Sequence record: PZ027503.1
Source: a phage
Length of the DNA: 64,000 nt
Reading direction: 5' to 3' (one strand)
Within the stretch, counting starts at the first letter, position 1; each line of letters opens with the position of its first letter. Shown here piece after piece: positions 22,383 to 57,725 of the stretch. The translations under genes and the position numbers were made by a program. The notes beneath the pieces were generated by a model. It was given only the letters and a program-made list of their open reading frames with translations, was not told where the DNA came from and ran no database searches.

Positions 22383-22492
22383 GGTGTTGTCCTTTGTTTC
22401 GTTTCGTTGTTTGCTGCCAGTGAGTTAAATATAATATAACGCCGATCCCCTGTCAATAGGGGATAGCGCATTATTTACATTTCTTTACGTTA

Positions 22493-22513
22493 AAGGGCGC
22501 TTAGTGCGCCCCT
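22493..22513 (-). terminator. stem-loop, weak terminator
   Basis: AAGGGCGCTTAGTGCGCCCCTT hairpin after stop at 22523. Confidence 0.4.
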
Positions 22514-22522
22514 TGTACAATC

Positions 22523-22891
22523 TTACTTTGTGCGGTTGTGAACGTTATCGCGTTCAACCATCAGGGCAAGGCGGATCAGTTGATCAGTTGTATCGCGTAA
22601 ATTGTCGGGCCATGTTTTACTGTTCCAGCTATCCATGTTTGATTGTATATAGGTTTCAATGGCTTGATCCATATTATCAAACAAGTTTTCCTCCAGGCTC
22701 TCGGCTGTTTCACACTGGAAAGCATTAGCGACACTATTAATCAATAAGCAAGCCAGTAAATCAGCATTACGCCAATTTTTACGGATAGTTTCATCTGTCA
22801 GATAACCAACGAGATTAACCTTTGCGCCAGTGGTTGACGTTGCGATCACTTCTTGTGCTTTTTCAAGTGCTTTAATTGCTGATTTGCTCAT
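22523..22891 (-). CDS. hypothetical protein (122 aa)
   Basis: ORF track frame; start at internal ATG with AGAGGAAAA RBS downstream of cassette. Confidence 0.55.
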   Translation of the reverse strand: MSKSAIKALEKAQEVIATSTTGAKVNLVGYLTDETIRKNWRNADLLACLLINSVANAFQCETAESLEENLFDNMDQAIETYIQSNMDSWNSKTWPDNLRDTTDQLIRLALMVERDNVHNRTK

Positions 22892-22906
22892 TTTATTTTC
22901 CTCTTT

Positions 22907-22969
22907 GTGGGCTTGCTGTATTGCTCGCCCTACGTGATAAATAATAATGTAAGCGTGATCCGGTGTCAA
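22907..22969 (-). promoter_or_regulatory. promoter plus degenerate 5' stem-loop cassette
   Basis: minus-strand TTGACA-N17-TATTAT then CCCTACGTGATA block. Confidence 0.45.
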
Positions 22970-23144
22970 TAGGTAGCATTGTAAAGATTTGATAGTTTAT
23001 TCCTTTGATGTTTTGTTGTTTGATAGATGTTAGCTATCAATATATGGCGGGGTCGTCCGGTGATTATCTTCCCCTGCTCCCAGGTGCCGCCCGTTCAATA
23101 AGTATAACAAAAAACAGGACAAAAACAAGCCCTGTTTATTTATC

Positions 23145-23264
23145 TTAAAACCAGTTGCCAACCGTTTCCAATAGGTCACTGACTACCAGGACAACATTGA
23201 TCAGCACATATTTAATCAGGAAGGGGATTAGCGCCAGCGCCGCTACTATGATCCCCATTGTCAT
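23145..23264 (-). CDS. membrane micro-protein (39 aa)
   Basis: hand-translated MTMGIIVAALALIPFLIKYVLINVVLVV...; GAGAAAGG RBS. Confidence 0.35.
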   Translation of the reverse strand: MTMGIIVAALALIPFLIKYVLINVVLVVSDLLETVGNWF

Positions 23265-23275
23265 GATTACCTTTC

Positions 23276-23566
23276 TCATTGTTGGCGGTTTACGTAAGCT
23301 TTACCGTTTACGGTCATCTGTATGGCTTCAAGGTCTGGATCTTCCTTAAGGTCGCGTGCAAGCTCACCGCAGCGGATACCCTCGAATCCGTAGTATTCTG
23401 TTTCCCCGTCCTTAAAAGTTTTAGCGGCAAGGCATAGGCGATAATTAACGCCGATCCGGTTTACCGCGTTGATATCGGTTAACGCGATGGATTCAGGCAA
23501 ATCATTAGCCATTACAGGCGCGTTAATACCAACAACCAGGGCAACTACTGCGATCATCTTTTTCAT
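23276..23566 (-). CDS. secreted protein with signal peptide (96 aa)
   Basis: ORF track; MKKMIAVVALVVGINAPVMA; hairpin 23597-23612 upstream. Confidence 0.6.
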   Translation of the reverse strand: MKKMIAVVALVVGINAPVMANDLPESIALTDINAVNRIGVNYRLCLAAKTFKDGETEYYGFEGIRCGELARDLKEDPDLEAIQMTVNGKAYVNRQQ

Positions 23567-23621
23567 GCTTTCTAGCCTCTTCCTATTGCGTTTAATGGGG
23601 CGTTACCGCCCCGCTTATGGT

Positions 23622-23858
23622 TTATTGATTGATGTTATAATGAAAATTATTTTCTTCAATAGCTTTTAAAATAAAAGCCGTGATCGCTTTCGTGTCTACT
23701 TGTTCGAACGTATCGGAATAGCACCAATAATGATCATCCCCTACTTTCGGCGGGTAAACCTGGACAAGGAGATCGCCACCTGGTTGATCTATAAGCTCAA
23801 CATGTAAGCCGGATGATTCAGCGGTTTTAACGGCGTTTAATACTGTTGCAATACTCAT
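23622..23858 (-). CDS. hypothetical protein (78 aa)
   Basis: ORF track; hairpin 23879-23894 upstream of RBS. Confidence 0.55.
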   Translation of the reverse strand: MSIATVLNAVKTAESSGLHVELIDQPGGDLLVQVYPPKVGDDHYWCYSDTFEQVDTKAITAFILKAIEENNFHYNINQ

Positions 23859-23902
23859 AATCTTTTCCTTTCTGATGTGGGGCGTTGCCGCCCCTTTGTT
23901 GA

Positions 23903-24202
23903 TTAGATCGCTGTTTCCAGTAGTTCGGCTAACGTCTTACCGCCTGATAGTTGGTCTAACGTTTGCTCTTCTGGCAAGAAATTAGCTGATATTAATCCGA
24001 CTTGATTCCCTTTGTGCCAATTGGCTTGACGGATGATTCCATCCTTTAAAGATTTTACCGCCATTGTGCAACCGTCGCCAAATGATTCATTTTTATGATC
24101 CATTACTTCATAAGCGCCCAGCTTGCTGCTGTTAGGCACCATCAACGCGAATACATCACCAACAACCAGTTTTTCTACGGTAACAATAGCGATAGTTTCC
24201 AT
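23903..24202 (-). CDS. hypothetical protein (99 aa)
   Basis: ORF track. Confidence 0.55.
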   Translation of the reverse strand: METIAIVTVEKLVVGDVFALMVPNSSKLGAYEVMDHKNESFGDGCTMAVKSLKDGIIRQANWHKGNQVGLISANFLPEEQTLDQLSGGKTLAELLETAI

Positions 24203-24219
24203 TTTACTTTCCTCATTAT

Positions 24220-24278
24220 CGGCGGCACCATTGCCGCCCTACGCATTAAATATAAGTTATCTAAGAGATTAGATCAAG
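24220..24278 (-). promoter_or_regulatory. promoter plus 5' stem-loop cassette
   Basis: hairpin GGCGGCACCATTGCCGCC 24221-24238; minus-strand TTGATC-N17-TATATT. Confidence 0.55.
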
Positions 24279-24280
24279 GA

Positions 24281-24472
24281 TTATTTTGTAAAGATTACAG
24301 CTTCATCAAAATTTTCAACATAGTAAGCAAGCTCCTCATTTGCTGCAACCATTCCTAAAAGTTGGCTATAAGATAAACCTTTGATCCCTTCCTCGTTGTT
24401 TAATGCTTCGATGATTTCATCAACGGGCGCAAAAAACATGTTATTCGATTCCAGGTAGGAGATGGTTTTCAT
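24281..24472 (-). CDS. hypothetical protein (63 aa)
   Basis: ORF track. Confidence 0.5.
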   Translation of the reverse strand: MKTISYLESNNMFFAPVDEIIEALNNEEGIKGLSYSQLLGMVAANEELAYYVENFDEAVIFTK

Positions 24473-24492
24473 AATGTTTACCTTTTTCGGGG

Positions 24493-24549
24493 AGCGGCAC
24501 CATTGCCGCCCTACGTGGTAAATATTAGCACACTGGCGATCTGTGTCAA
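24493..24549 (-). promoter_or_regulatory. promoter plus 5' stem-loop cassette
   Basis: hairpin GCGGCACCATTGCCGC 24494-24509; TTGACA-N16-TAATAT on minus strand. Confidence 0.6.
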
Positions 24550-24555
24550 TACTTT

Positions 24556-24942
24556 TTATTCAATATAAATCAAATTATCTTCACCAATGTAAGCCGACAC
24601 GTTCGGCATAAACTTAGCTGCATTGGTTAGGCGGTTCGCCGTGTTAGTGGTGTATATTTCAGGGCGATCCCAAAAGCCTACGCCGTGACTGTTACGGGTA
24701 AAATGTAAATCATTCCCGATCTGGTTGGCTGTTGCGCCGTCGCTCATTGCCTCAGAGATAGCGGCAAGATTAGCATTAATAAAGGCTGTTACATCCTGGG
24801 CGATCCGTTGATCCGCACTAGGAGAAAAATCATAATCGTCTAAGTTATCAATAAAATTACCTTCATAATCCCTTGCTGATTCAGCAAAAATAAAGGCTTC
24901 TTTATAGCCGTTGATGATTTCAATAATGATTTCTGTTTTCAT
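24556..24942 (-). CDS. hypothetical protein (128 aa)
   Basis: ORF track. Confidence 0.55.
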   Translation of the reverse strand: MKTEIIIEIINGYKEAFIFAESARDYEGNFIDNLDDYDFSPSADQRIAQDVTAFINANLAAISEAMSDGATANQIGNDLHFTRNSHGVGFWDRPEIYTTNTANRLTNAAKFMPNVSAYIGEDNLIYIE

Positions 24943-25154
24943 GCTGTACGCTCGACAATAATAATAGTTTGCGGGATCTCGTTTTCTACTACTAACAAGG
25001 CTTTTTTCTGTGTGATAGATATTTTAACACGTTGTAAAGTAGCGGTAAAATCTTTCATTTCATTATGCGCGGATTTAGTACAATGCCAGATCTCAGGTTT
25101 ACCAACTTGCAAGCCGCGTAAAAATTCCGTTTTACCTGTCTTATTCGTGATCAT
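24939..25154 (-). CDS. hypothetical protein (71 aa)
   Basis: ORF track frame; start at ATG 25154 with AAGGTG RBS. Confidence 0.5.
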   Translation of the reverse strand: MITNKTGKTEFLRGLQVGKPEIWHCTKSAHNEMKDFTATLQRVKISITQKKALLVVENEIPQTIIIVERTA

Positions 25155-25164
25155 TTGTTTCACC

Positions 25165-25269
25165 TTAACCGATACCGTGGGAAGATAGGATCATATTAGC
25201 CATAGTTGCAACTACTCCAACCGATAACGCCAGGCCAACCACTGCAACCGTGAAAATTTTCTCTAACAT
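25165..25269 (-). CDS. membrane micro-protein (34 aa)
   Basis: hand-translated MLEKIFTVAVVGLALSVGVVATMANMILSSHGIG; follows cassette. Confidence 0.35.
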   Translation of the reverse strand: MLEKIFTVAVVGLALSVGVVATMANMILSSHGIG

Positions 25270-25286
25270 GATTCTACCCTCATTAA

Positions 25287-25349
25287 TGGGCGTTGCACCA
25301 TTGCCCCGCCCTACGTAATACACTTTACCAGATAACAAACCATTGTCAA
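25287..25349 (-). promoter_or_regulatory. promoter plus 5' stem-loop cassette (variant)
   Basis: hairpin 25288-25311; TTGACA at 25343-25349 (minus). Confidence 0.5.
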
Positions 25350-25407
25350 GGTTTATTTACTACATCTTTTAAGCTGTATTTTTAAAATACAGCTTTCAGG
25401 CTGTCAA

Positions 25408-25578
25408 TTACTCTTCATCGTCGCCGTTATAGTATTCAATGCCGTTTTCATCGGTTACGGTGATGTTAACGCCACCGATAGCAACACGATCACGGGCAAA
25501 CGTCATAGCTTCGTTTAAATCTTCAGACCAAAAAATATTGTGACCTTTGCGCGATACATAAAACATAGTTGGGATCAT
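25408..25578 (-). CDS. hypothetical protein (56 aa)
   Basis: ORF track frame; start at internal ATG after cassette and AGAAGAGAAA RBS. Confidence 0.5.
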   Translation of the reverse strand: MIPTMFYVSRKGHNIFWSEDLNEAMTFARDRVAIGGVNITVTDENGIEYYNGDDEE

Positions 25579-25600
25579 GATTTGTTTCTCTTCTGTTGTG

Positions 25601-25662
25601 AGCGGTGGACCATTCCGCCGCTCTATGTAATAAACTTTACTACGTTGTTTGCCTACTGTCAA
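25601..25662 (-). promoter_or_regulatory. promoter plus 5' stem-loop cassette
   Basis: hairpin GCGGTGGACCATTCCGCCGC; TTGACA 25657-25662 (minus). Confidence 0.55.
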
Positions 25663-25663
25663 A

Positions 25664-25948
25664 TTATTTTTTAATGTTTTGCCCTACAAAATTGATCACT
25701 TCCTTAAGCTGTCTCTCTGTCATGATCGTACCTGGTAACTCTTCTTTAATTTCTTCCGGTAAATAAATATTACCGCGCCAGGTTAACAAACAACCGTTTT
25801 GATCTTCGCAGATAGAATAAGAAAACATCCACTCGCAATCATTCTCAAGCTCCCAAAAACACAAAAAGTCTTCTTTCCCTAAGTTTTCAACGGTTAAACA
25901 TAATCCGCGACGTGCTGCATAATTAGTTAGGCTTTTTGTGATTTTCAT
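25664..25948 (-). CDS. hypothetical protein (94 aa)
   Basis: ORF track frame; start at internal ATG downstream of hairpin. Confidence 0.55.
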   Translation of the reverse strand: MKITKSLTNYAARRGLCLTVENLGKEDFLCFWELENDCEWMFSYSICEDQNGCLLTWRGNIYLPEEIKEELPGTIMTERQLKEVINFVGQNIKK

Positions 25949-25970
25949 GATTTTTCTCTCTTCTGTTGTG

Positions 25971-26027
25971 AGCGGCACCATTGCCGCCCTACAAGATACA
26001 TATTATCAGACTACGCGGACTTGTCAA
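25971..26027 (-). promoter_or_regulatory. promoter plus 5' stem-loop cassette
   Basis: hairpin GCGGCACCATTGCCGC 25972-25987; TTGACA 26021-26027 (minus). Confidence 0.6.
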
Positions 26028-26028
26028 A

Positions 26029-26139
26029 CTATTTTTTCTTTTTCTTTGCTTCCAACCGTCTAAGGTTACGGCTTGACTTATTGCGCAAGGCGCTTAGATC
26101 GTCGTACCCTTTCCATGCTTGCATATCTTTCGGATTCAT
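26029..26139 (-). CDS. small basic protein (36 aa)
   Basis: ORF track frame; start at internal ATG with GGGGGATAAC RBS; K-rich C-terminus. Confidence 0.35.
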   Translation of the reverse strand: MNPKDMQAWKGYDDLSALRNKSSRNLRRLEAKKKKK

Positions 26140-26149
26140 GTTATCCCCC

Positions 26150-26428
26150 TTAACGATTATAAACATTATGGATGGCTTCAAAGGCAAGATGACCATAAGC
26201 CGCCAAATCGGGATTGATCCAAGCGTTATCCAACATCGTTTCAAGGACTGTGGAATCATCGTATAAAGCATCATAGAAATCTGCACGGATGATCGTTTCA
26301 ATGTCGTCCGGTGTTAGTTTGTCGTTCAACTTGCACACTGTTTCAACGTCAACACCAATTTTCCAATTTTGTAAATTAGTGGTTAACATTGTTTTCATTT
26401 CTTCGGTTGTTAATTTAACGATGGTCAT
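26150..26428 (-). CDS. hypothetical protein (92 aa)
   Basis: ORF track; cassette upstream. Confidence 0.55.
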   Translation of the reverse strand: MTIVKLTTEEMKTMLTTNLQNWKIGVDVETVCKLNDKLTPDDIETIIRADFYDALYDDSTVLETMLDNAWINPDLAAYGHLAFEAIHNVYNR

Positions 26429-26451
26429 GATTTTTTCTCTCTTCTGTTAGG

Positions 26452-26507
26452 CGGGGCGCTTGTCGCCCCTATGTGATACATCTTATCAGGTTGATTCAGC
26501 TTGTCAA
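26452..26507 (-). promoter_or_regulatory. promoter plus 5' stem-loop cassette
   Basis: hairpin GGGGCGCTTGTCGCCCC; TTGACA-N16-TAAGAT (minus). Confidence 0.6.
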
Positions 26508-26508
26508 A

Positions 26509-26670
26509 CTATTTGTTAGCCGGATTATATGCCAGGACCGCGCCGCTTGCTTTCACGCTTTCCGCTTCATAGTTGCGCAGATCGTTTTCTGTAAGATTGA
26601 GCGCGATCACTTCCTCAATCTCAACACCAGCGGCAATGGCGATCTCTTTGATAATGTCTGCTGTTTTCAT
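26509..26670 (-). CDS. hypothetical protein (53 aa)
   Basis: ORF track frame; start at internal ATG (MKTADIIKEI). Confidence 0.5.
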   Translation of the reverse strand: MKTADIIKEIAIAAGVEIEEVIALNLTENDLRNYEAESVKASGAVLAYNPANK

Positions 26671-26680
26671 GGTATGTACC

Positions 26681-26800
26681 TTATAAGATGATTGATAAGA
26701 TAGTGACAACGAAAGCGATTATACTGATGGCAAATGTCATCTTTTTACCTTCGGATACTGCCGGATTTTCTACCGTGTATTCTACTGTGTACTTGCTCAT
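26681..26800 (-). CDS. membrane-anchored micro-protein (39 aa)
   Basis: hand-translated MSKYTVEYTVENPAVSEGKKMTFAISIIAFVVTILSIIL. Confidence 0.35.
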   Translation of the reverse strand: MSKYTVEYTVENPAVSEGKKMTFAISIIAFVVTILSIIL

Positions 26801-26822
26801 CGTGTAATCCTCTCGTTTGCTT

Positions 26823-26880
26823 TGGGAACTATTCCCGCCGCCCTATGAATTAAATATACACTATCTCAAAATGATTGCAA
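26823..26880 (-). promoter_or_regulatory. promoter plus 5' stem-loop cassette (short stem)
   Basis: hairpin GGGAACTATTCCC; TTGCAA at 26875-26880 (minus). Confidence 0.5.
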
Positions 26881-26898
26881 GCCTTTTTCTAAATTATT

Positions 26899-27183
26899 TT
26901 ATGCAGTAAACAAACCATCATTTACAACGGCGGCGATGATCTCCCGTGCCATTGATTCAGGGAAAGGGGCGCTATAGTCCTGGCTTGTCTCATCGGTATC
27001 GGTGATCCAATGATAAGCTAACGAGTAAAAGCCTTTACTAACTGTTTTCAGTGAGATGATGATCACTCGGTCAAGCTTATTGGTGAATGTTGCCGTTAAT
27101 GTGTCACCCTCCTGCGTCATGTTGGACAAGTAAGCGGGATCATTAATCAGGGAAAACATTAGCACGGTGTTAGCTTTACTCAT
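26899..27183 (-). CDS. hypothetical protein (94 aa)
   Basis: ORF track frame; start at internal ATG with GAGGATG RBS. Confidence 0.55.
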   Translation of the reverse strand: MSKANTVLMFSLINDPAYLSNMTQEGDTLTATFTNKLDRVIIISLKTVSKGFYSLAYHWITDTDETSQDYSAPFPESMAREIIAAVVNDGLFTA

Positions 27184-27203
27184 GATTGCATCCTCAAAGG
27201 GGG

Positions 27204-27260
27204 CGCGGCACCATTGCCGCCCTACACGATAACTATAACACAATATAAAACAGGATCAAC
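27204..27260 (-). promoter_or_regulatory. promoter plus 5' stem-loop cassette
   Basis: hairpin GCGGCACCATTGCCGC 27205-27220; TTGATC-N16-TATAGT (minus). Confidence 0.55.
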
Positions 27261-27462
27261 CTTTATTTTTCCACGGTGTCAGCTTGTTAATCATTGGTGA
27301 TAAATAGCGTTTACCAACGTAAAACAGCACGCCAACTGATGCAACGGCGGCGACCTCATGCATAGCCGACGGGAAACGGGTATCATAATAAGATCCAATA
27401 ATAGCAATAGCGGCAACGGCTGCAACGTCGATAATGATTTTTTCTTGTTTTGCGGTGATCAT
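27256..27462 (-). CDS. small membrane protein (68 aa)
   Basis: ORF track; hydrophobic. Confidence 0.5.
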   Translation of the reverse strand: MITAKQEKIIIDVAAVAAIAIIGSYYDTRFPSAMHEVAAVASVGVLFYVGKRYLSPMINKLTPWKNKG

Positions 27463-27481
27463 AATATTTACCTTTTTGTAT

Positions 27482-27541
27482 GGTGGGGAACTATTCCCCG
27501 CCTGATGTAATACAGTTTAACAGGTCCGGTTATGGTGTCAA
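27482..27541 (-). promoter_or_regulatory. promoter plus 5' stem-loop cassette
   Basis: hairpin GGTGGGGAACTATTCCCCGCC; TTGACA 27536-27541 (minus). Confidence 0.55.
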
Positions 27542-27547
27542 CCACTT

Positions 27548-27733
27548 TTAAAGATATTTTATGTTAATGATGTTTTCAGGTTTTACCTTGTTATGATGTG
27601 CATCAACATAGATCAAACCATCGTCAGAAAAGCCCAGGATCACGCCCTGCGCAATAAAACCGTATTCGTCACGGTAACGCACGGCTATTTTTAATGTTGC
27701 GCTGTAGGCTGTTTTAAGCTCGTTTAAAGTCAT
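27548..27733 (-). CDS. hypothetical protein (61 aa)
   Basis: ORF track; GAGGAT RBS. Confidence 0.5.
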   Translation of the reverse strand: MTLNELKTAYSATLKIAVRYRDEYGFIAQGVILGFSDDGLIYVDAHHNKVKPENIINIKYL

Positions 27734-27753
27734 TTTTGTTTATCCTCTACATG

Positions 27754-27774
27754 TAAAAAGAAAGGGCGCTTGGT
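27754..27774 (-). terminator. intra-island terminator
   Basis: AAGGGCGCTTGGTGCGCCCTT hairpin followed by CTTTTTAC on minus strand. Confidence 0.45.
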
Positions 27775-27788
27775 GCGCCCTTGTTATG

Positions 27789-27935
27789 TTAATCCTCTAA
27801 ATCCATCCAATTATATTTGTCACTCTTCCCGCGCTTTGTTTTATTGCGCTTGTCGCCTTTGCGGATCACTTCCTCGTTCCAGGCCTTGCGGATCTTGGAA
27901 GATTGAATTTTTTCTGCGCGATTAGATGTATTCAT
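27789..27935 (-). CDS. small basic protein (48 aa)
   Basis: hand-translated MNTSNRAEKIQSSKIRKAWNEEVIRKGDKRNKTKRGKSDKYNWMDLED; AGAGGAAACA RBS. Confidence 0.4.
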   Translation of the reverse strand: MNTSNRAEKIQSSKIRKAWNEEVIRKGDKRNKTKRGKSDKYNWMDLED

Positions 27936-27954
27936 TTTGTTTCCTCTTTATATG

Positions 27955-28008
27955 AGCGGCACTATTGCCGCTATATTGTTAATTTAAACTGTTTTGTAAA
28001 ATTGTCAA
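27955..28008 (-). promoter_or_regulatory. promoter plus 5' stem-loop cassette
   Basis: hairpin GCGGCACTATTGCCGC 27956-27971; TTGACA 28002-28008 (minus). Confidence 0.55.
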
Positions 28009-28014
28009 GGTTTA

Positions 28015-28368
28015 TCATTCATAAGAGCAAGCAAGGATCACGCCTGCAATATAAAGCCAATAATTTTCCCTTTCTCGTTGGATTTTATCATCGCTGCTAT
28101 TCTCTTTAATGTATCCCCAGGATGTTAACAACCGATCTACTTCCCAATACTCGAAAGCTATATTAATATTTGACGGTAAACCTTGTAACCATGATGCTAT
28201 TGCTCTGATAATGTTATGATCGTAACGTTTTTGATTATCGGTGTACCAATATTCAGATTTAAAACAGCGCATCAATTCCGCGATCTTCTCTTTCTCTTCT
28301 GTGATGCCATACTCGCTATAATCAATTGAGGCCAGAATATAAAGTTTAATTGCATTTTGTGCTTTCAT
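28015..28368 (-). CDS. hypothetical protein (117 aa)
   Basis: ORF track. Confidence 0.55.
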   Translation of the reverse strand: MKAQNAIKLYILASIDYSEYGITEEKEKIAELMRCFKSEYWYTDNQKRYDHNIIRAIASWLQGLPSNINIAFEYWEVDRLLTSWGYIKENSSDDKIQRERENYWLYIAGVILACSYE

Positions 28369-28387
28369 GGTGTCTCTCTTCTGTTGT

Positions 28388-28445
28388 TGGCGGCACCATT
28401 GCCGCCCTATGTGTTACATCTTACCGGATTTTTAAAACTTGTCAA
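28388..28445 (-). promoter_or_regulatory. promoter plus 5' stem-loop cassette
   Basis: hairpin GGCGGCACCATTGCCGCC 28389-28406; TTGACA 28439-28445 (minus). Confidence 0.6.
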
Positions 28446-28667
28446 TCATTTTTCTACTATCATTTGATACCCTGTTTCCAGGTTAGTAAACACCGTGATC
28501 CCGTCCTGGCGTTCACTCATTAGCATACAAGGCGCTAACATCCTTTCTACTGCCTTGCACTCATTGTAAACGGCGGTTATGTCTCCTGCGGCCTTGTCTT
28601 CTGTGGTGAATGTATCGTTTACGTAAACCTGACCAGCGACAACGGCGACAATAGCGAAAGTGATCAT
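28446..28667 (-). CDS. hypothetical protein (73 aa)
   Basis: ORF track; MITFA N-terminus shared with next small ORF. Confidence 0.5.
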   Translation of the reverse strand: MITFAIVAVVAGQVYVNDTFTTEDKAAGDITAVYNECKAVERMLAPCMLMSERQDGITVFTNLETGYQMIVEK

Positions 28668-28700
28668 GGTGTTTCCTTGTTAGTAGTGGTTTCTCTTCTC

Positions 28701-28726
28701 TATAGCGCCCATTGTAAGGCGCTATA
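28701..28726 (-). promoter_or_regulatory. variant 5' stem-loop (TATAGCGCC/GGCGCTATA)
   Basis: inverted repeat immediately upstream of RBS of 28446-28667. Confidence 0.4.
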
Positions 28727-28734
28727 ACGAAAAG

Positions 28735-28908
28735 TCAACGATTATTTTTAAGGCTTAAAGTACCTAACTTGTCAGCATGACGCAGACCAGGGAAGATCCA
28801 TTTGCCTGATTCATCTTTTACAGGTGCTTTAAACGTAGCGCCCAGGTTGGCGGCGTTAATTTTACGGGCAACGTTGCGAGCGGCTTCACGGGTAGCGAAA
28901 GTGATCAT
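28735..28908 (-). CDS. small protein (57 aa)
   Basis: hand-translated MITFATREAARNVARKINAANLGATFKAPVKDESGKWIFPGL... Confidence 0.4.
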   Translation of the reverse strand: MITFATREAARNVARKINAANLGATFKAPVKDESGKWIFPGLRHADKLGTLSLKNNR

Positions 28909-28932
28909 GGTGTTTTCCTCTTCTCTTTGTTA

Positions 28933-28994
28933 GGCGGTGGACCATTCCGCCGCCTTGATGTAATACAGTTTACTTTATTTTTGCAGTATTGCAA
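28933..28994 (-). promoter_or_regulatory. promoter plus 5' stem-loop cassette
   Basis: hairpin GGCGGTGGACCATTCCGCCGCC; TTGCAA 28989-28994 (minus). Confidence 0.45.
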
Positions 28995-29000
28995 GCGGTT

Positions 29001-29213
29001 TTATGAAATAATCGTCAAAGTAAAATTGTAATCACCTGATTGATACAATACTTTATCACCGAACGTTCCAACACGTTTAACATTGCAATATATACCCATA
29101 ACACTTTTTACATCTTTGATATTCTTCACGCCTGTAATATCTTTATTAAAATGATCGTGATCAGAAAATAAAACTTGACTTGCATTTTTTAACAGTGTGC
29201 GGATATTAGCCAT
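29001..29213 (-). CDS. hypothetical protein (70 aa)
   Basis: ORF track. Confidence 0.5.
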   Translation of the reverse strand: MANIRTLLKNASQVLFSDHDHFNKDITGVKNIKDVKSVMGIYCNVKRVGTFGDKVLYQSGDYNFTLTIIS

Positions 29214-29237
29214 CGTAATAATCTCTCTTCTGTTGTG

Positions 29238-29294
29238 AGCGGCACCATTGCCGCCCTACGTAATATAGTTTACTCTTTTTCTTTCCCGTGTCAA
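29238..29294 (-). promoter_or_regulatory. promoter plus 5' stem-loop cassette
   Basis: hairpin GCGGCACCATTGCCGC 29239-29254; TTGACA 29289-29294 (minus). Confidence 0.6.
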
Positions 29295-29303
29295 CAATCT
29301 TTT

Positions 29304-29531
29304 TCAGATTAATTCATCCAGGCATAACAGGCGATCAACGTTGAGATCGGTTAGGCTGATGGTTGGCACCTGGTAGGATTCGATGTACTCGACGCTTGCA
29401 TATTCCCCAAAATTAGCAATAGCCCACTTATTCAAGATCTCACATACATCATTAATCTTTTTGTTTGTTACGACTGCAATAACCTGGGAAGTGCCAACGG
29501 TGCCGGATACGCGAACAATATTGATAGCCAT
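29304..29531 (-). CDS. hypothetical protein (75 aa)
   Basis: ORF track. Confidence 0.5.
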   Translation of the reverse strand: MAINIVRVSGTVGTSQVIAVVTNKKINDVCEILNKWAIANFGEYASVEYIESYQVPTISLTDLNVDRLLCLDELI

Positions 29532-29551
29532 AATCTTTAATCTCTCTGTTT

Positions 29552-29612
29552 TGGCGGGAAACCACTTCCCGCCCTATGTGATACATCTTACACTAATTTT
29601 AAACGTTGTCAA
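29552..29612 (-). promoter_or_regulatory. promoter plus 5' stem-loop cassette
   Basis: hairpin GGCGGGAAACCACTTCCCGCC; TTGACA-N-TAAGAT (minus). Confidence 0.6.
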
Positions 29613-29621
29613 CTGTTTTTA

Positions 29622-29861
29622 TTACATTCCAACCATCGCGGCACGGATCGCAGTAGTGCTATATTTGAAACCGTCTGGCGTTTTATCTTGTCCAGTTTGT
29701 TCCAGAAAAAGCATCATATCCCGCGCCGCATCATTACGATTAGCATTAGCGTTAATAAAATCTTGGGCCAACCGGTATAACGATTCATCGTTATTAATCC
29801 AAAGGCTTACATTCCAATGAGTTTTGTTTTTGTGACCGTTGTACATTTTAGATTTAGCCAT
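29622..29861 (-). CDS. hypothetical protein (79 aa)
   Basis: ORF track. Confidence 0.5.
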   Translation of the reverse strand: MAKSKMYNGHKNKTHWNVSLWINNDESLYRLAQDFINANANRNDAARDMMLFLEQTGQDKTPDGFKYSTTAIRAAMVGM

Positions 29862-29884
29862 GATTTTTCTCTCTTTTTCAGTGA

Positions 29885-29944
29885 GGCGGGAAGTGTTCCC
29901 GCTCTCTATGTAATACAGTTTACTCTTTTTATTCGTGCTGTCAA
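29885..29944 (-). promoter_or_regulatory. promoter plus 5' stem-loop cassette
   Basis: hairpin GCGGGAAGTGTTCCCGC 29886-29902; TTGACA 29939-29944 (minus). Confidence 0.55.
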
Positions 29945-29950
29945 TGCTTT

Positions 29951-30316
29951 TTATAAATCTTTTTTACGTTTTACATCGCTCGCATGACTGTATACAGTGA
30001 TCCCATTGTCACGGCAAAAACGGGAAAGGTAGGCATAATTTGAAAACTCTTTACCTTCCAGGTTGATAACCTTGCTAAACTCTTCTAGGGCAACGGTATC
30101 AAAATGATCACCATAGCCATATTGAAACGGAACGTTAACCACCTCGATCAGTTTACCGCCGATCTCAACGTCAACCATTAAAGAGAAATATGTGTTACCG
30201 TAGGACCGTTGAAACCAGCGACGGGCGCTAATGTGCACCGCTTCAATGCTGGATAATTCAATTTTAGCCGTGTTAGCCAGGGTAGCATAAGCGGAAACAT
30301 TGATATTAATAGCCAT
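29951..30316 (-). CDS. hypothetical protein (121 aa)
   Basis: ORF track. Confidence 0.55.
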   Translation of the reverse strand: MAININVSAYATLANTAKIELSSIEAVHISARRWFQRSYGNTYFSLMVDVEIGGKLIEVVNVPFQYGYGDHFDTVALEEFSKVINLEGKEFSNYAYLSRFCRDNGITVYSHASDVKRKKDL

Positions 30317-30341
30317 GATGATAATCTCTCTTTTTGGTTAG

Positions 30342-30394
30342 TGGGAAGTATTCCCGATAAAAGTTATTATGCTTATACTATCACTCATTGTCAA
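30342..30394 (-). promoter_or_regulatory. promoter plus 5' stem-loop cassette (short stem)
   Basis: hairpin GGGAAGTATTCCC; TTGACA 30389-30394 (minus). Confidence 0.5.
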
Positions 30395-30413
30395 TAGTAT
30401 AAGACTAAAACTT

Positions 30414-30593
30414 TTAACGATAATCGTTATAGGCTTTATTGACCTGGCGAATGTAACATTCGAAAGCAAGATCAATGTATTCGTATTCACGCACATAATC
30501 ACCATAGGTCACTACATACATTTTTAAAGTTTCCTCATAAGCCAGGAGGATCGAATCTAAACCTATAATCTCAGTTTTTGCAATGATAGCCAT
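30414..30593 (-). CDS. small protein (59 aa)
   Basis: hand-translated MAIIAKTEIIGLDSILLAYEETLKMYVVTYGDYVREYEYIDLAFECYIRQVNKAYNDYR. Confidence 0.4.
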   Translation of the reverse strand: MAIIAKTEIIGLDSILLAYEETLKMYVVTYGDYVREYEYIDLAFECYIRQVNKAYNDYR

Positions 30594-30612
30594 GATGTTA
30601 ACCTTTTATTGT

Positions 30613-30670
30613 TGGCGGCACCATTGCCGCCCTACGTGATAAACTATACCAGAAGTTTAAACAGTGTCAA
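30613..30670 (-). promoter_or_regulatory. promoter plus 5' stem-loop cassette
   Basis: hairpin GGCGGCACCATTGCCGCC 30614-30631; TTGACA 30665-30670 (minus). Confidence 0.6.
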
Positions 30671-30676
30671 CCGTTT

Positions 30677-31039
30677 TTATTCGTAAATTTTACCGCTTTC
30701 GGCCCATACCATAACGCGGCGCATACTATCCCAAGTGTTTTGATCCAGGTTTAAGCCGTGCAACTCTTCGGTACTTCCCAGACCAGGTACCGCTTTGTTG
30801 TAAGTCGCATATAAGCGCCCTTGATACTCATACGCCAGAGTAAGATCCGTTTGAATCATCTTTTTAAGCATAGCATTAAGCATCATATTAGCGGCATGTT
30901 GATCACGTTTTAGCGGTAACATATCAATAAGGGCGCGATAAGCTGAAACATGGATATCAACCGTTTCACGTGGTAAATTTTTCATATCATCGCGGAAAGA
31001 TACCAGATTAAATATGATAGTATTGATTTGCTTGCTCAT
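30677..31039 (-). CDS. hypothetical protein (120 aa)
   Basis: ORF track. Confidence 0.55.
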   Translation of the reverse strand: MSKQINTIIFNLVSFRDDMKNLPRETVDIHVSAYRALIDMLPLKRDQHAANMMLNAMLKKMIQTDLTLAYEYQGRLYATYNKAVPGLGSTEELHGLNLDQNTWDSMRRVMVWAESGKIYE

Positions 31040-31059
31040 TGTGTTACCCTTTTTTGTTT

Positions 31060-31121
31060 TGGCGGGGAAGTATTCCGCCGCCCTATGTGATACATCTTAT
31101 CAGATTAAAAAACGTTGTCAA
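31060..31121 (-). promoter_or_regulatory. promoter plus 5' stem-loop cassette
   Basis: hairpin GGCGGGGAAGTATTCCGCCGCC; TTGACA-N-TAAGAT (minus). Confidence 0.6.
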
Positions 31122-31129
31122 GAATATTT

Positions 31130-31225
31130 TTAGAAAATAATATCCGCTACTACAACCCAAAATGGAACGGCTAGAATGATAGCGTTAATCGTTCCAACCG
31201 TCAAGCTATTTTCTTTATTAATCAT
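31130..31225 (-). CDS. membrane micro-protein (31 aa)
   Basis: hand-translated MINKENSLTVGTINAIILAVPFWVVVADIIF; sits between two cassettes. Confidence 0.3.
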   Translation of the reverse strand: MINKENSLTVGTINAIILAVPFWVVVADIIF

Positions 31226-31253
31226 TGTAAGCCTCTTGCATAATTTCACTATG

Positions 31254-31311
31254 AGCGGCACCATTGCCGCCCTACGTGGTAAATATTATGCCAGTGGCGG
31301 CGATATGTCAA
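31254..31311 (-). promoter_or_regulatory. promoter plus 5' stem-loop cassette
   Basis: hairpin GCGGCACCATTGCCGC 31255-31270; TTGACA 31306-31311 (minus). Confidence 0.6.
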
Positions 31312-31865
31312 AGACTATTTTCAAAGTTTTCTAGTGCGATCCTTTTTTCTTCCTCTGTCGGCTGATAATCAGGAAAAGCATCAACACACAACAACGGCGG
31401 GATCTCTTCGTACTCTTCCTCTTCCGTTGTCTCCTCGTCTTCCTCCTGGGCTATGGCTGCAATTTTGGCTAATTTTCTTTCGGCTTGAATCAATTTACCA
31501 TCAAGTACGTTTTTTGCCATGTTGTAAGCGGTCCAGGTGATGCGCTTACTTTCCAACGCTTCATCAAGCGCCGCTATCTTGCTGGGGTATTCATCCAGGA
31601 CACGAAAAGCCGGATCAATTTTGTACAAAGGATTATCTTTCGCGCCGTCGCTTGCATCTTCCGCACTGGATAAATCAGCGTTACCATTTGCCAGCCAGCC
31701 AGGGCGCACATAACGCGCTTTTACGTTGCCGTTACTACGTGCTAATCTGTTACCTATTTGCTCACCGCTATATCCCGTGGATTCATCGATAAGATGATCG
31801 GGAATGATGCGCGGATCATCTGCTTCATGTTTTACCCAAGACTGGATCACATATTCGCGGCCCAT
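31308..31865 (-). CDS. hypothetical protein with acidic C-terminus (185 aa)
   Basis: ORF track frame; start at ATG 31865 with AAGGTGG RBS. Confidence 0.6.
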   Translation of the reverse strand: MGREYVIQSWVKHEADDPRIIPDHLIDESTGYSGEQIGNRLARSNGNVKARYVRPGWLANGNADLSSAEDASDGAKDNPLYKIDPAFRVLDEYPSKIAALDEALESKRITWTAYNMAKNVLDGKLIQAERKLAKIAAIAQEEDEETTEEEEYEEIPPLLCVDAFPDYQPTEEEKRIALENFENSL

Positions 31866-31866
31866 A

Positions 31867-32124
31867 TTAACCACCTTTTTTCAACAATTGGCATACTTTA
31901 AAAAGACTTGCTGAATCCTTGCAAGGGTAGAAAGATGTACGATAATCACGTACGCCAACCTTGCGGATCTCGATGTTCTCGCATGTTGTTTGATCAAAGA
32001 TATTTATTTCATCACGCCCCCTTATATAAACATAGTGGGGATGTATTAACGCATATTTTGCTAATCTGTAAAAAGCGTTATCTTTGAACGCGATCACGTG
32101 ACCTTTTAATTTGATGTAAAACAT
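31867..32124 (-). CDS. hypothetical protein (85 aa)
   Basis: ORF track. Confidence 0.5.
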   Translation of the reverse strand: MFYIKLKGHVIAFKDNAFYRLAKYALIHPHYVYIRGRDEINIFDQTTCENIEIRKVGVRDYRTSFYPCKDSASLFKVCQLLKKGG

Positions 32125-32141
32125 TCTACCACCTTACAAAT

Positions 32142-32197
32142 AGCGGGAACTATTCCCGCTTTATGTAACATATTAACAAATTATTCGTTAATGTCAA
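32142..32197 (-). promoter_or_regulatory. promoter plus 5' stem-loop cassette
   Basis: hairpin AGCGGGAACTATTCCCGCT; TTGACA 32192-32197 (minus). Confidence 0.55.
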
Positions 32198-32200
32198 GCC

Positions 32201-32473
32201 TTAAAGCAAAAACGCTACATCTTGCGCTTTTAGTGTAGTATCAACCATTTTCGGGCTTTTATAATCAACAAAGCGCGCGGTTTTTTCAATAGCGAAACCG
32301 AGATAATCTTGCTTGTTGAAATTACACTCTTTCTTAAATGTTTCCCGTGCAATGGCAATCGCTGCGTCCAGGGATAAACGCCCGTCAATATTGATATTAG
32401 CGAAAGATCCGCCACCGCTCATAGGTTTACCAGTTGTGCCAGCTACGATCATTGTTGCGCTATATGATGCCAT
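32201..32473 (-). CDS. hypothetical protein (90 aa)
   Basis: ORF track. Confidence 0.55.
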   Translation of the reverse strand: MASYSATMIVAGTTGKPMSGGGSFANINIDGRLSLDAAIAIARETFKKECNFNKQDYLGFAIEKTARFVDYKSPKMVDTTLKAQDVAFLL

Positions 32474-32497
32474 GATGATAATCTCTCTTCTGTTACG

Positions 32498-32557
32498 AGC
32501 GGGAAACCACTTCCCGCCCTATGTGATACATCTTATCAGGTTGTTGTTTGTTGTCAA
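32498..32557 (-). promoter_or_regulatory. promoter plus 5' stem-loop cassette
   Basis: hairpin GCGGGAAACCACTTCCCGC; TTGACA-N-TAAGAT (minus). Confidence 0.6.
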
Positions 32558-52849: not shown

Positions 52850-52850
52850 T

Positions 52851-54327: not shown

Positions 54328-54339
54328 TAAGGAGCTAAA

Positions 54340-54813: not shown

Positions 54814-54825
54814 GAGGAGATTAGT

Positions 54826-55047
54826 ATGGGTGTTTTTGCAGGTATTGTTGCAGTGGTAAGCTTTTTTGTTATTGCTTTTATGCTTAGTTTGATTCCAGCT
54901 TGGTTACTGTTGCTGGCTTACAACTATGTTGCTGAAGTTATGGGTCATGCAGATATCACTGTCCCAGTAACCTTCTGGACCGTGGTTTGTGTTTCGTTTA
55001 TTCTGGCTGTATTACGAGGAATCTTTTCCTCTCATTCAACAAAATAA
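54826..55047 (+). CDS. small membrane protein (73 aa)
   Basis: ORF track; two TM helices. Confidence 0.5.
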   Translation: MGVFAGIVAVVSFFVIAFMLSLIPAWLLLLAYNYVAEVMGHADITVPVTFWTVVCVSFILAVLRGIFSSHSTK

Positions 55048-55050
55048 GTG

Positions 55051-55109
55051 TTGACATAGTTCTTAAAAAGAGTAAGATATATCACATGAAGCGGGGAATA
55101 GTTCCCCGC
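55051..55109 (+). promoter_or_regulatory. promoter plus 5' stem-loop cassette (same family as island cassettes, plus orientation)
   Basis: TTGACA-N16-TAAGAT, then hairpin GCGGGGAATAGTTCCCCGC, then GAGAGGAG RBS. Confidence 0.6.
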
Positions 55110-55126
55110 AAAGAGAGGAGAAAAGA

Positions 55127-56101
55127 ATGCAACTTGGTTTCCCAATTATTGATGTAGTTGTTTTAGTTGGTATTTTAGCATTGTCTATTGGTATCGATTT
55201 CTTTGGTCATAAAGAGAATAAAGAAATTGGAATTAAATCTGCTTTGCTTTGGTCTGTTTTTTGGATTGCTTTAGCTTTAGGATATTACGCATTCATTTGG
55301 GTAGAACATGGTAAAGAGTTTGCCGCGCTTTTCCTAAGTGGCTATGTGTTGGAAAAGAGTCTTTCTGTAGATAACCTGATGGTGTTCATGGCGATTTTTG
55401 CAAGCTTTGGAATTAAGAGCACACATCTCCAACATAAGATTCTACTTTGGGGGATTGCAGGAGCCATTGTCTTCCGAGGTATTTTTGTTGCAGCAGGGAC
55501 CGCTTTGTTTAACCTTCATTGGTCGGTCCAAGTGTTGTTCGGTTTGATTGTAGCTTGGTCTGCCGTGGCTATCATCAAAGGTGGTGACGAAGAAGAGGAT
55601 ATTGATTACTCTAAACATTGGGCTGTTCGTTTAGTAGGTAAAGTTCTGCCTGTGCACAATGCACTAGATGGTGAAAAGTTCATTACCATTAAGAATGGTA
55701 TTAAATATGCAACTCCTGCTCTTCTTTGTGTGTTTGTTATTGAGCTTACAGATATTGTCTTCTCTTTTGATTCAGTTCCGGCTGTGATCGGTGTGACACA
55801 AGAACCTCTGCTAGTTTATTCTGCAATGCTGATGGCTGTTCTTGGTTTACGTGCACTTTTCTTTGTGTTAAGTGTAGCTGTGAAATATCTGGTTCACTTA
55901 GAGAAAGCTGTTGCTGTGGTTCTGGTGTTTGTCGGTGCTAAACTTATGTATCACCCGTTCGGTGAAACACTTCATGCCAAGTGGTCATTCCTCCCGCATG
56001 ATATTTCCCCTAACGTAAGTCTGATGATTGTTCTAGGCACATTAGCTCTTGGTGTTATTGCAAGCTTTATCTTCCCTGAAAAAGAAGAAGCTGCTATTTA
56101 A
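55127..56101 (+). CDS. TerC-family integral membrane protein
   Basis: multi-TM; duplicated signature VLEKSLSVDNLMVF and IELTDIVFSFDSVPAV. Confidence 0.8.
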   Translation: MQLGFPIIDVVVLVGILALSIGIDFFGHKENKEIGIKSALLWSVFWIALALGYYAFIWVEHGKEFAALFLSGYVLEKSLSVDNLMVFMAIFASFGIKSTHLQHKILLWGIAGAIVFRGIFVAAGTALFNLHWSVQVLFGLIVAWSAVAIIKGGDEEEDIDYSKHWAVRLVGKVLPVHNALDGEKFITIKNGIKYATPALLCVFVIELTDIVFSFDSVPAVIGVTQEPLLVYSAMLMAVLGLRALFFVLSVAVKYLVHLEKAVAVVLVFVGAKLMYHPFGETLHAKWSFLPHDISPNVSLMIVLGTLALGVIASFIFPEKEEAAI

Positions 56102-56107
56102 TAGATG

Positions 56108-56130
56108 AGCCTCCTTCGGGAGGCTATTTT
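56108..56130 (+). terminator. rho-independent terminator
   Basis: AGCCTCCTTCGGGAGGCT hairpin then ATTTTAT. Confidence 0.6.
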
Positions 56131-56143
56131 ATAGGAGAGACTT

Positions 56144-56494
56144 ATGAATAATTTTGATGAAATTCAAGAACTTGTTTGGGATTTGCCTGGTGATGTGGAT
56201 TACATTTCAGATTATCTTTCAAAAGTTTACCCTGGGGTAAGCGTTATGATTGTGACCAAAGATCCGATTAATTTGCCTCCTAATGTGGTAGCTTGTTGTG
56301 GAAGTGGTTCAGGAGAAGTAGAGCCTGTATCTCGTTGGGAATTAACTAAAGCTGTTTCAAAACGAAACGGTGAAGTTTTGAATATTGATATTGAACAAAT
56401 ATGGACTTCTCCAGCAGCCAAATGGAATGATCCGAATGGTTGGGATTTGTTCTTCTGGGATAATGAAACTGATGATGAGGTATTTTTAAAATGA
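56144..56494 (+). CDS. hypothetical protein (116 aa)
   Basis: ORF track. Confidence 0.55.
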   Translation: MNNFDEIQELVWDLPGDVDYISDYLSKVYPGVSVMIVTKDPINLPPNVVACCGSGSGEVEPVSRWELTKAVSKRNGEVLNIDIEQIWTSPAAKWNDPNGWDLFFWDNETDDEVFLK

Positions 56495-57115: not shown

Positions 57116-57129
57116 TAAGGAGAAAAACA

Positions 57130-57723: not shown

Positions 57724-57725
57724 GT

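Follow-up and report, generated by a model that had tools for sequence, protein, structure and literature searches.

The TerC-family gene (hereafter terC) in the DNA analysed here, a 64,000-nucleotide stretch of the phage sequence record PZ027503.1 (hereafter the window), is preceded by a composite cassette that is a true member of a cassette family otherwise found, in this window, in an island of small genes on the opposite strand. The cassette can be read as four parts, namely an A-rich stretch, a near-consensus sigma-70 promoter, a start region with a GC-rich hairpin, and a purine-rich leader with the Shine-Dalgarno sequence and start codon (Table 1). The phage belongs to Phapecoctavirus (phAPEC8-like Escherichia coli myoviruses of ~150 kb, Stephanstirmvirinae), and at 54000-57000 the sequence is 98-99% identical to that of many Escherichia Phapecoctavirus phages, the best match being dw-ec (99.3%).

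Table 1. Positions in the window of the parts of the terC cassette, the gene it precedes and the island of related cassettes
Feature	Position	Strand	Basis or remark
A-rich stretch upstream of the -35 hexamer	55036..55050	+	Read directly; matching A-rich run before island copies
-35 hexamer TTGACA	55051..55056	+	(Nearly) invariant in the island alignment
-10 hexamer TAAGAT, after a 16-nt spacer	55073..55078	+	Read directly
Conserved start region ATATCACATGAA	55079..55090	+	Island consensus GTATCACATAGGGCGG
Hairpin GCGGGGAA-TAG-TTCCCCGC	55091..55109	+	Perfect 8-bp stem, 3-nt loop
Hairpin 5' arm GCGGGGAA	55091..55098	+	Read directly
Hairpin loop TAG	55099..55101	+	Read directly
Hairpin 3' arm TTCCCCGC	55102..55109	+	Read directly
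Purine-rich leader with Shine-Dalgarno AGGAG (55116..55120)	55110..55126	+	Shine-Dalgarno 6 nt from ATG
TerC-family membrane protein gene, 324 aa	55127..56101	+	Pfam PF03741, E=3e-40
Terminator-like hairpin AGCCTCC-TTCG-GGAGGCT, then ATTTTAT	56108..56132	+	Directly 3' of the terC stop codon
Island of ~24 paralogous cassettes, each before a small ORF (39-139 aa)	22428..32557	-	Profile and alignment

The terC cassette and its island relatives

An earlier note, made from the letters of the DNA, had described TTGACA-N16-TAAGAT followed by a hairpin at 55051-55109(+) in front of a TerC-family gene, and direct reading together with the match to Pfam PF03741 confirmed this arrangement. The promoter matches 10 of 12 consensus positions and has AACAAAATAAGTG upstream of TTGACA-N16-TAAGAT; the same -10 hexamer and 16-nt spacer are also found in the island copies at 32557, 31121, 29612, 28445 and 26507. 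The A-rich stretch, which overlaps the end of an upstream 73-aa ORF (stop codon TAA at 55045-55047), may act as an UP element. Transcription is predicted to start at A55086, the eighth nucleotide past the -10 hexamer and preceded by a C, which places the hairpin at positions +6 to +24 of the predicted transcript. Folded as RNA, the hairpin has a stability of -14.6 kcal/mol (z=-3.65) and is followed by the tail AAAGAGAG, with no U in 8 nt and no U-run, while the whole stretch between the hairpin and the ATG reads AAAGAGAGGAGAAAAGA. An upstream AUG at the predicted +1 (55086), opening a 23-codon leaderless ORF, was discarded as neither phi92 nor the Klebsiella relatives conserve it. The product of terC itself falls into PHROG 7180, in the category 'moron, auxiliary metabolic gene and host takeover'.

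Scanning for a promoter followed by a hairpin returned about 20 copies on the minus strand at 22.4-32.6 kb. In these, TTGACA is preceded by an A-rich run and separated by 16-17 nt from a TAAGAT-type -10 hexamer, after which come GTATCACATAGGGCGG, a GC-rich hairpin, a leader (for example CAACAGAAGAGAGA) and the ATG. Their purine-rich AGAAGAGAGA leaders resemble that of terC. All nine of the island ORFs tested match PHROG families of unknown function. The terC hairpin had been called the exact reverse-strand form of an island variant on the strength of two sites, which read GGCGGGGAATAGTTCCCCACC (27482-27502, minus strand) and AGCGGGAATAGTTCCCGCT (32142-32160, minus strand). Exact identity holds for the 13-mer GGGAATAGTTCCC, which is present in four copies at 26824(-), 27486(-), 32145(-) and 55094(+), and does not extend to the outer bases of the stem, which differ. 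Allowing up to two mismatches, this 13-mer has 9 matches in the window against 1.04 expected, and the composite TTGACA-N15-19-TANNNT-N5-15-GGGAATAGTTCCC has 3 against 0.00 expected (100 shuffles).

Membership of the terC copy in the family was supported by profile and covariance model in both directions. An nhmmer profile built from 18 island copies, from which the terC copy was excluded, matched 55051-55114 with E=3e-8 and 31 bits over profile positions 1-63, that is, from the promoter through the hairpin; reciprocally, a covariance model built from seven terC-upstream orthologues only recovered 34 island copies in three genomes. The resemblance therefore goes beyond generic promoter hexamers, the start region and hairpin being shared across the aligned copies. 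The remaining significant profile matches in the window all lie on the minus strand at 22.9-32.6 kb, and the sole other match on the plus strand, at 40445, covers the hexamers only (E=7.9), so that the claim that no other cassette of this window lies outside the island stands. Likewise, when the island profile was run on the complete genomes of phAPEC8 and Justusliebigvirus alia, each had exactly one match outside the island, before terC. The reciprocal model detected an additional promoter-plus-hairpin in phAPEC8 at 45695-45611, with a different stem and in a region outside the window.

Across 36 distinct cassettes, in an alignment that was fitted to the covariance model and so leans toward structure, 96.3% of the cells are paired and 8 of 8 pairs show double changes, a signal that collapses in controls with slid partner columns. 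RNAalifold, run on a MAFFT alignment of the island copies in which stems of unequal length were misaligned, returned no structure. Stems and loops vary widely among copies (GCGGCA/ATGG, GCGGGAA/TAG, GGGGCG/ACAAG, GCGGAGGA/TTG and AGAGGGAG/ATAGG), and the start region together with the 5' arm (ATCACATAGGGCGG) is conserved far above the spacer or the leader. The geometry is also regular: the stem starts 10-12 nt past the -10 hexamer in most copies, and the seventh and eighth bases past that hexamer are a C and a purine in 17 of the 19 folded copies. A C-purine step about 8 nt past the -10 hexamer is the usual place and sequence of transcription start in E. coli. With a start at this conserved step, 0-5 unpaired nucleotides are predicted ahead of the stem.

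All stems but one have stabilities of -11 to -16 kcal/mol. The tails after them mostly contain 0-1 U in 8 nt (2-4 in a few), and a terminator scan of the window flagged no sense-strand cassette hairpin, the terC copy included. In 25 of 34 distinct copies the sense strand folds more stably than the antisense strand and in 8 the reverse is true, these copies being paralogues and not independent observations; in addition, the outer pair recurrently alternates between G.U, A-U and G-C. Together, the strand bias and the alternation weakly favour a role as RNA on the coding strand.

Conservation, mosaicism and recurrence in other phages

The earlier note had proposed related phages as the place to see whether terC carries the cassette elsewhere. 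It does so across genera, being kept in Phapecoctavirus, in Justusliebigvirus (phi92 and alia) and in Klebsiella-infecting relatives, with one exception: compared at the terC locus, Klebsiella phage FBKp34 has no cassette before the gene. The cassette shows no change in phAPEC8_ev052 and tuntematon and small changes in phAPEC8 and phiWec188 (stem GCGGGGAG/TTCCCCGC, with a G.U pair), and it is diverged yet intact in phi92 and alia (TTGACT-N16-TATAGT, stem GCGGAGGA/TCCTCCGC). Klebsiella phage KP13-26 and two metagenomic contigs have very different stems, AGAGGGAG/CTCCCTCT and GGGAGAG/CTCTCCC, and in the Klebsiella copies the hairpin is kept while the start-region sequence is not. A search of IMG/VR with the TerC protein yielded only 4 loci.

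The terC orthologues, which come from four lineages, were aligned with checking by hand. Pairing is complete (100%) at the seven core pairs, and both sides have changed in 5 of 9 pairs; the pairing score was reached by none of 500 shuffles, and sliding the partner columns abolished the signal. The GGAG of the Shine-Dalgarno sequence is invariant among these orthologues. Since the cassette occupies the same place across genera and its stem has changed in a compensatory manner, the terC copy is old, fixed and selected for structure, and is no recent arrival. Concerted evolution of the terC and island hairpins was looked for in alia and not found, its terC stem (GCGGAGGA/TCCTCCGC) being unlike every island stem.

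All seven relatives compared (7/7), FBKp34 included, have the hairpin that follows terC, with its UUCG loop and U-rich tail, and show compensatory changes in its stem. Having a promoter cassette of its own and a conserved terminator, terC has the look of a self-contained unit of promoter, gene and terminator. The packed block of plus-strand genes around it includes those for anaerobic ribonucleotide reductase, a PRTase, a macro-domain protein and a small membrane protein. Read-through transcripts could be supplied by this long block. For the genes past terC (56144 onward), no promoter was found between 56101 and 56144.

Comparison with phAPEC8 supported the suggestion that the cassette is a portable expression module, the differences within the island being bounded by cassettes. 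In phAPEC8, ~540 bp take the place of the segment 31157-29612 (1.5 kb, four genes with cassettes), whose right edge coincides exactly with the TTGACA of a cassette. The gene at 24472-24281 is flanked by one full and one partial cassette; phAPEC8 has a single cassette at this place, and the alignment blocks on either side overlap by 35 bp within it. Around terC, differences between the window and phAPEC8 are confined to 54826-55125, which holds a small ORF and the cassette, with a mosaic edge at ~55125. Tuntematon is a nearly perfect match to the window on either side, and the match spans the cassette and reaches the first tens of bases of terC, whereas the main part of its terC is only 50-85% identical to that of the window.

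Portability also found support in a T1-like Cronobacter phage, in which a cassette-like element occurs together with a gene homologue. The 15-mer TATCACATAGGGCGG was scanned through IMG/VR and the hits were filtered with the cassette profile; most of the 26 matches were due to chance. Those confirmed by the profile were in Pectobacterium phage phiTE, Sortsnevirus siphoviruses (among them sortkaff and IME279), the T1-like Cronobacter phage ESP2949-1 and two unassigned contigs. In each of these distant phages the layout is the same, with a promoter, the start region, a GGGC...GCCC hairpin, a purine-rich leader and an ATG, and in ESP2949-1 and one of the contigs the protein encoded downstream is 47% identical to that of the island gene at 25664-25948. 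A 63-nt consensus query matched 166 phage records, among which the phages of 131-141 kb are probably rV5-like. Among 5,426 complete E. coli genomes, none matched the terC cassette. Recurrence across families would reflect either cassette-plus-gene modules moving between families or a shared host factor.

Comparison with known cassettes and leaders

The closest known counterparts are the promoter-early stem-loop (PeSL) cassettes of T4-like phages, described in RB49/phi1, PST/T4 and nt-1/KVP40 (PMC2839356; PMC4122927). The PeSL features found here comprise a promoter, an adjacent stem-loop, a Shine-Dalgarno sequence and start codon at the 3' end, repetition, and indels between close relatives that are bounded by cassettes. 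The likeness extends to the AT-rich upstream region, to the near-consensus sigma-70 type of the promoter, to the stable, GC-rich nature of the stem-loop and to the placing of the repeats, within a variable region, before numerous small genes without a known function, the terC copy being the exception outside this region. Further properties reported for PeSL are that the stem-loop lowered lacZ expression as strongly as rrnB T1 in the RB49 work, and that mini-circles of cassette plus gene were detected in infection by inverse PCR (PMC2839356).

Several differences can be named. The phage studied here is a Stephanstirmvirinae myovirus whereas PeSL phages are T4-like, a difference of where such cassettes have been described and not of mechanism. 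The stem-loop has a fixed position within the predicted transcript here, 10-12 nt past the -10 hexamer in most copies, whereas that of RB49/phi1 takes five positions, mostly within or overlapping the promoter, and that of PST lies upstream of the promoter (PMC2839356; PMC4122927). This is a difference of degree, because one of the subclasses given by Arbiol et al. has its stem downstream of the -10 hexamer (PMC2839356). Finally, the start region is itself conserved here.

The promoter half of the cassette has already been annotated in the GenBank record of phAPEC8 (JX561091), in which a 'putative host dependent promoter determined with MEME' at 121933-121971 corresponds to the -35 and -10 hexamers of the orthologous terC cassette. 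In the island of that record, 20-mers found with PHIRE are annotated directly after the MEME promoters, at the start region and hairpin. The record differs from our reading in that the two halves are not linked, the hairpin at terC is not annotated and the PHIRE motif is treated as a separate promoter.

Among RNA leaders, a parallel is offered by the 5'-terminal stem-loops that stabilise E. coli messages, as in the ompA and papA 5' UTRs (Emory, Bouvet and Belasco 1992; Bouvet and Belasco 1992; Arnold et al. 1998; all as listed in PMC3997798). In both cases a stable hairpin lies a few nucleotides from the 5' end (predicted, for the cassette) and is followed by an unstructured leader and the ribosome site. 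The sequences are unrelated, however, and a stabilising function for the cassette would follow by analogy from geometry alone. The yybP-ykoY Mn2+ riboswitch and the pH-responsive alx element resemble the cassette in being structured RNA leaders before a TerC-family gene, but the phage leader is a single short hairpin without an aptamer. Neither family had a match with E<=1 at 54700-56300, where two sub-threshold chance matches were the only ones, and Rfam at its gathering threshold gave no match in the whole window.

A moron is a gene that, equipped with a promoter and a terminator of its own, has been inserted between genes of a phage. With its own promoter cassette, its conserved terminator-like hairpin and its place in the 'moron' category of PHROGs, terC resembles these; in contrast to the classic morons, which are found in temperate phages and expressed from the prophage, it is carried by a phage that is virulent, and conservation of the unit extends across genera. 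The literature searched contained no description of Stephanstirmvirinae cassettes, nor the sequence string, and no transcript mapping in this subfamily.

Possible roles of the hairpin, and the meaning of the cassette

We consider it fairly probable that the cassette combines a sigma-70 early promoter, a transcribed 5'-terminal RNA hairpin and a strong ribosome site, with the hairpin shielding or insulating the mRNA. Host RNA polymerase would fire the promoter early in infection, and the transcript would begin at about A55086 with the hairpin at its extreme 5' end, 0-5 unpaired bases being left ahead of it. The hairpin would then act as RNA, most likely against 5'-end-dependent decay (RppH, RNase E), and would keep the ribosome site free of upstream context. 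Cassette and downstream terminator would together make terC a self-contained unit within a larger operon, and, at the level of DNA, the repeated cassettes may serve as homology patches for the gain, loss and swapping of genes. We infer the activity of the promoter, its exact start site, its early timing and the stabilising role of the hairpin, the last of these from the geometry of the predicted transcript. For 5'-end protection the terC copy is borderline, its predicted 5 unpaired nucleotides being the upper limit. Given the shared architecture of promoter and leader, it is reasonable to suppose, as the earlier note did, that terC is expressed together with the island genes.

Further observations count against a stabiliser. 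In RB49, the PeSL stem-loop cut reporter expression as strongly as rrnB T1, which leaves some probability for a blocking role of GC hairpins that have no obvious U-tail; and the start region is conserved beyond what a generic stabiliser needs, and recurs in unrelated phages. This conservation hints at a sequence-specific partner.

In the main rival reading, a promoter-terminator unit in the strict PeSL sense, the hairpin would stop or attenuate transcripts arriving from upstream, leaving each gene to be driven by its own promoter alone. The lacZ result fits such a function, for which Arbiol et al. proposed insulation of neighbouring genes; moreover, most island genes have no other sense-strand terminator-like hairpin between them, and the GC-rich stems resemble the G(n)-loop-C(n) stems of RB49. 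A terminator role is nevertheless doubtful here because there is no U-tail: the tails are mostly purine-rich with 0-1 U, rarely 2-4, no sense-strand hairpin passes the intrinsic-terminator scan, and the terC hairpin, with AAAGAGAG behind it, lacks the immediate U-run that accompanies the GC hairpin of an intrinsic terminator. A true terminator placed 3' of the cassette's own promoter would, in addition, abort the cassette's own transcript, and the genes past terC need read-through, there being no promoter of their own at 56101-56144. We therefore regard this explanation as unlikely. The start-region conservation could, instead, mark a site for a trans-acting factor, either an RNA-binding protein or nuclease or a DNA repressor at +6 to +24, which would control all the cassette genes, for example by early shut-off. 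Conservation of ATCACATAGGGCGG far above spacer and leader, its recurrence in the same arrangement in phiTE-like, Sortsnevirus and T1-like phages, which are unrelated, and the classic repressor position of an operator just past the start site all speak for it. On the other hand, stems differ too much in sequence and length, and loops vary too much, to suit a single dimeric protein that binds DNA sequence-specifically; in the Klebsiella terC copies the hairpin is kept without the start-region sequence; and no candidate factor was found, so that control by such a factor seems distinctly unlikely. A related and likewise unlikely reading takes YATCAC followed by AUAGGGCGG-loop-CCGCYC and the purine-rich leader as a distinct, sequence-specific RNA element of early-gene 5' UTRs, recognised by a common host factor and travelling between phage families with the genes it serves. 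The phages counted under this reading are Stephanstirmvirinae, rV5-like, phiTE-like and Sortsnevirus phages and the T1-like Cronobacter phage. The kinds of host factor that could be candidates are RNA polymerase, a ribonuclease and an RNA-binding protein.

An element acting as DNA, whether a cruciform or hairpin recombination site, an N4-like hairpin promoter or a phage-specific promoter formed by the 20-mer, is very improbable. Arbiol et al. did speculate on a recombinase acting at the stem-loop (PMC2839356). Island indels are here bounded by cassettes, but homologous recombination between 60-80-bp repeats accounts for them without a special site; the alternation of G.U, A-U and G-C and the sense-strand bias point towards RNA. 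As for the 20-mer, in the phAPEC8 record the label 'putative promoter determined with PHIRE' is given to the 20-nt motif that comes after the MEME promoters, and TAAGATGTATCACATAGGGCGG is loosely like T7-type promoter consensus sequences. A T7-type promoter for a phage polymerase, considered on account of ...TCAC-ATAGGG... and the PHIRE labels, was rejected, since no phage RNA polymerase gene is annotated in phAPEC8 and the likeness holds only if one nucleotide is deleted in the critical -5 to -1 region. The conserved TTATCACATAG was also compared by eye with the DnaA box, LexA box and IHF site, all of which were rejected: it is one base short of TTATNCACA, and neither a LexA box nor an IHF site fits. 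That an ordinary promoter merely happens to be followed by a short palindrome can be given practically no weight. Promoter-like hexamer pairs are indeed common in this AT-rich DNA (44 found against 39 expected at 50000-64000), but chance is refuted by the number of composite matches (3 against 0 expected), the profile match (E=3e-8), the two-way covariance searches and the compensatory changes in the orthologues.

With a transcribed 5' hairpin behind an early promoter as the preferred explanation, the terC cassette is of a known, PeSL-like kind with its promoter half already annotated: a tidy and well-supported example in a new phage lineage, and mostly an ordinary one. PeSL-type cassettes are not confined to T4-like phages. 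Each phAPEC8-like or phi92-like genome contains about 25 intergenic repeats, which can now be read as single composite units where the MEME and PHIRE labels split one unit into two, and many of these phages are candidates for therapy. The fixed, transcribed position of the hairpin offers a cleaner case for deciding between a terminator and a 5' RNA cap. The cassette may also be of use as a compact, strong part for E. coli that unites promoter, leader and ribosome site. Should the conservation of the start region across families reflect a host factor, it would constitute a new phage RNA motif. For the phages themselves, the presence of an island-type cassette and a terminator of its own at terC across several genera means that TerC appears to be needed independently of the surrounding operon, and probably early. 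Independent expression of TerC is a testable lead on the role of a common and unexplained phage gene.

Variant and partial cassettes in and around the island

In one island cassette, the -10 hexamer TACAAT sits in the loop of a perfect inverted repeat, so that this copy resembles the subclass of RB49 promoter-early stem-loops (PeSLs) in which the stem-loop overlaps the -10 hexamer, unlike the type with the hairpin downstream. Three further profile matches are partial or degraded, with the full -35 hexamer missing or the promoter weak, and are similar to what Comeau et al. 2014 (PMC4122927) call 'half PeSLs'. Cassettes also bound the differences between the island and its phAPEC8 counterpart: a four-gene replacement has an edge falling exactly on a TTGACA, and a one-gene insertion lies between one full and one partial cassette. 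Beyond the window, the model built from the terC-upstream orthologues, and only this model, picked up another unit in phAPEC8, flanked by the thymidylate synthase gene and gene 00112, which consists of TTGACT-N16-TATAAT, TGGGAGGA-GGTGAG-TCCTCCCA, AGGAG and ATG.

Coordinates of the features discussed (window numbering unless stated)
Feature	Position	Strand	Detail
Variant cassette	28738-28701	-	9-bp perfect inverted repeat TATAGCGCC/GGCGCTATA
Partial or degraded cassette	24253-24215	-	profile match
Partial or degraded cassette	27247-27200	-	profile match
Partial or degraded cassette	28991-28921	-	profile match
Promoter-plus-5'-hairpin unit	phAPEC8 45695-45611	-	beyond the window
Four-gene replacement	31157-29612	-	relative to phAPEC8
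One-gene insertion	24549-24256	-	relative to phAPEC8
Leaderless ORF	55086-55157	+	23 codons
Small upstream ORF and terC cassette	54826-55125		mosaic region
terC body	55175-56070		mosaic region
Terminator-like hairpin	56108-56132	+	AGCCTCC-TTCG-GGAGGCT + ATTTTAT, directly 3' of the terC stop codon
Island gene with foreign homologues	25664-25948	-	
CGCCGCCC-like spacer run	31305-31289	-	island copy m31311

The terC locus and its relatives

The terC locus shows allelic mosaicism. Phages of the tuntematon type match the window at ~100% identity on either side of terC, cassette included; in the terC body, DNA identity is only 50-85%, and protein identity is ~73% in closely related phages of this type. 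In phAPEC8, differences from the window at this locus are confined to the small upstream ORF and the cassette. The window's terC cassette reads CACATGA where the conserved sequence is CACATAG, so that an AUG falls exactly on the position predicted as the transcript start. From this AUG runs a leaderless ORF, which overlaps the beginning of terC in a different frame. This ORF is probably incidental, because its conservation does not extend to phi92 or the Klebsiella relatives. The terminator-like hairpin following terC is kept in phAPEC8, tuntematon, phiWec188, phi92, KP13-26 and FBKp34, where changes in its stem are compensatory, and it is not among the ARNold terminators given in the phAPEC8 record.

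Public records titled 'Campylobacter phage' or 'Acinetobacter phage' (MG065650, MG065645 and others; OP562383) are ~98% identical over 3 kb to this E. coli phage, and host labels for the group look unreliable.

The start region and hairpin in unrelated phages

The motif of start region plus hairpin (TATCACATAGGGCGG...) occurs in the same layout in Sortsnevirus, the T1-like Cronobacter phage ESP2949-1 and Pectobacterium phiTE; the loci outside the close relatives are L029, L034, L035, L038, L040 and L044. Both in ESP2949-1 and in contig L034, the gene behind it is a homologue of island gene 25664-25948 of the window, at 47% identity. Several foreign copies (L029, L034, L038 and L044) carry CGCCGCCC-like runs in the -35/-10 spacer, as does one window copy. 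The 5' arm of the hairpin downstream, GGGCGG, is complementary to such runs, which in read-through RNA would provide it with an alternative pairing partner.
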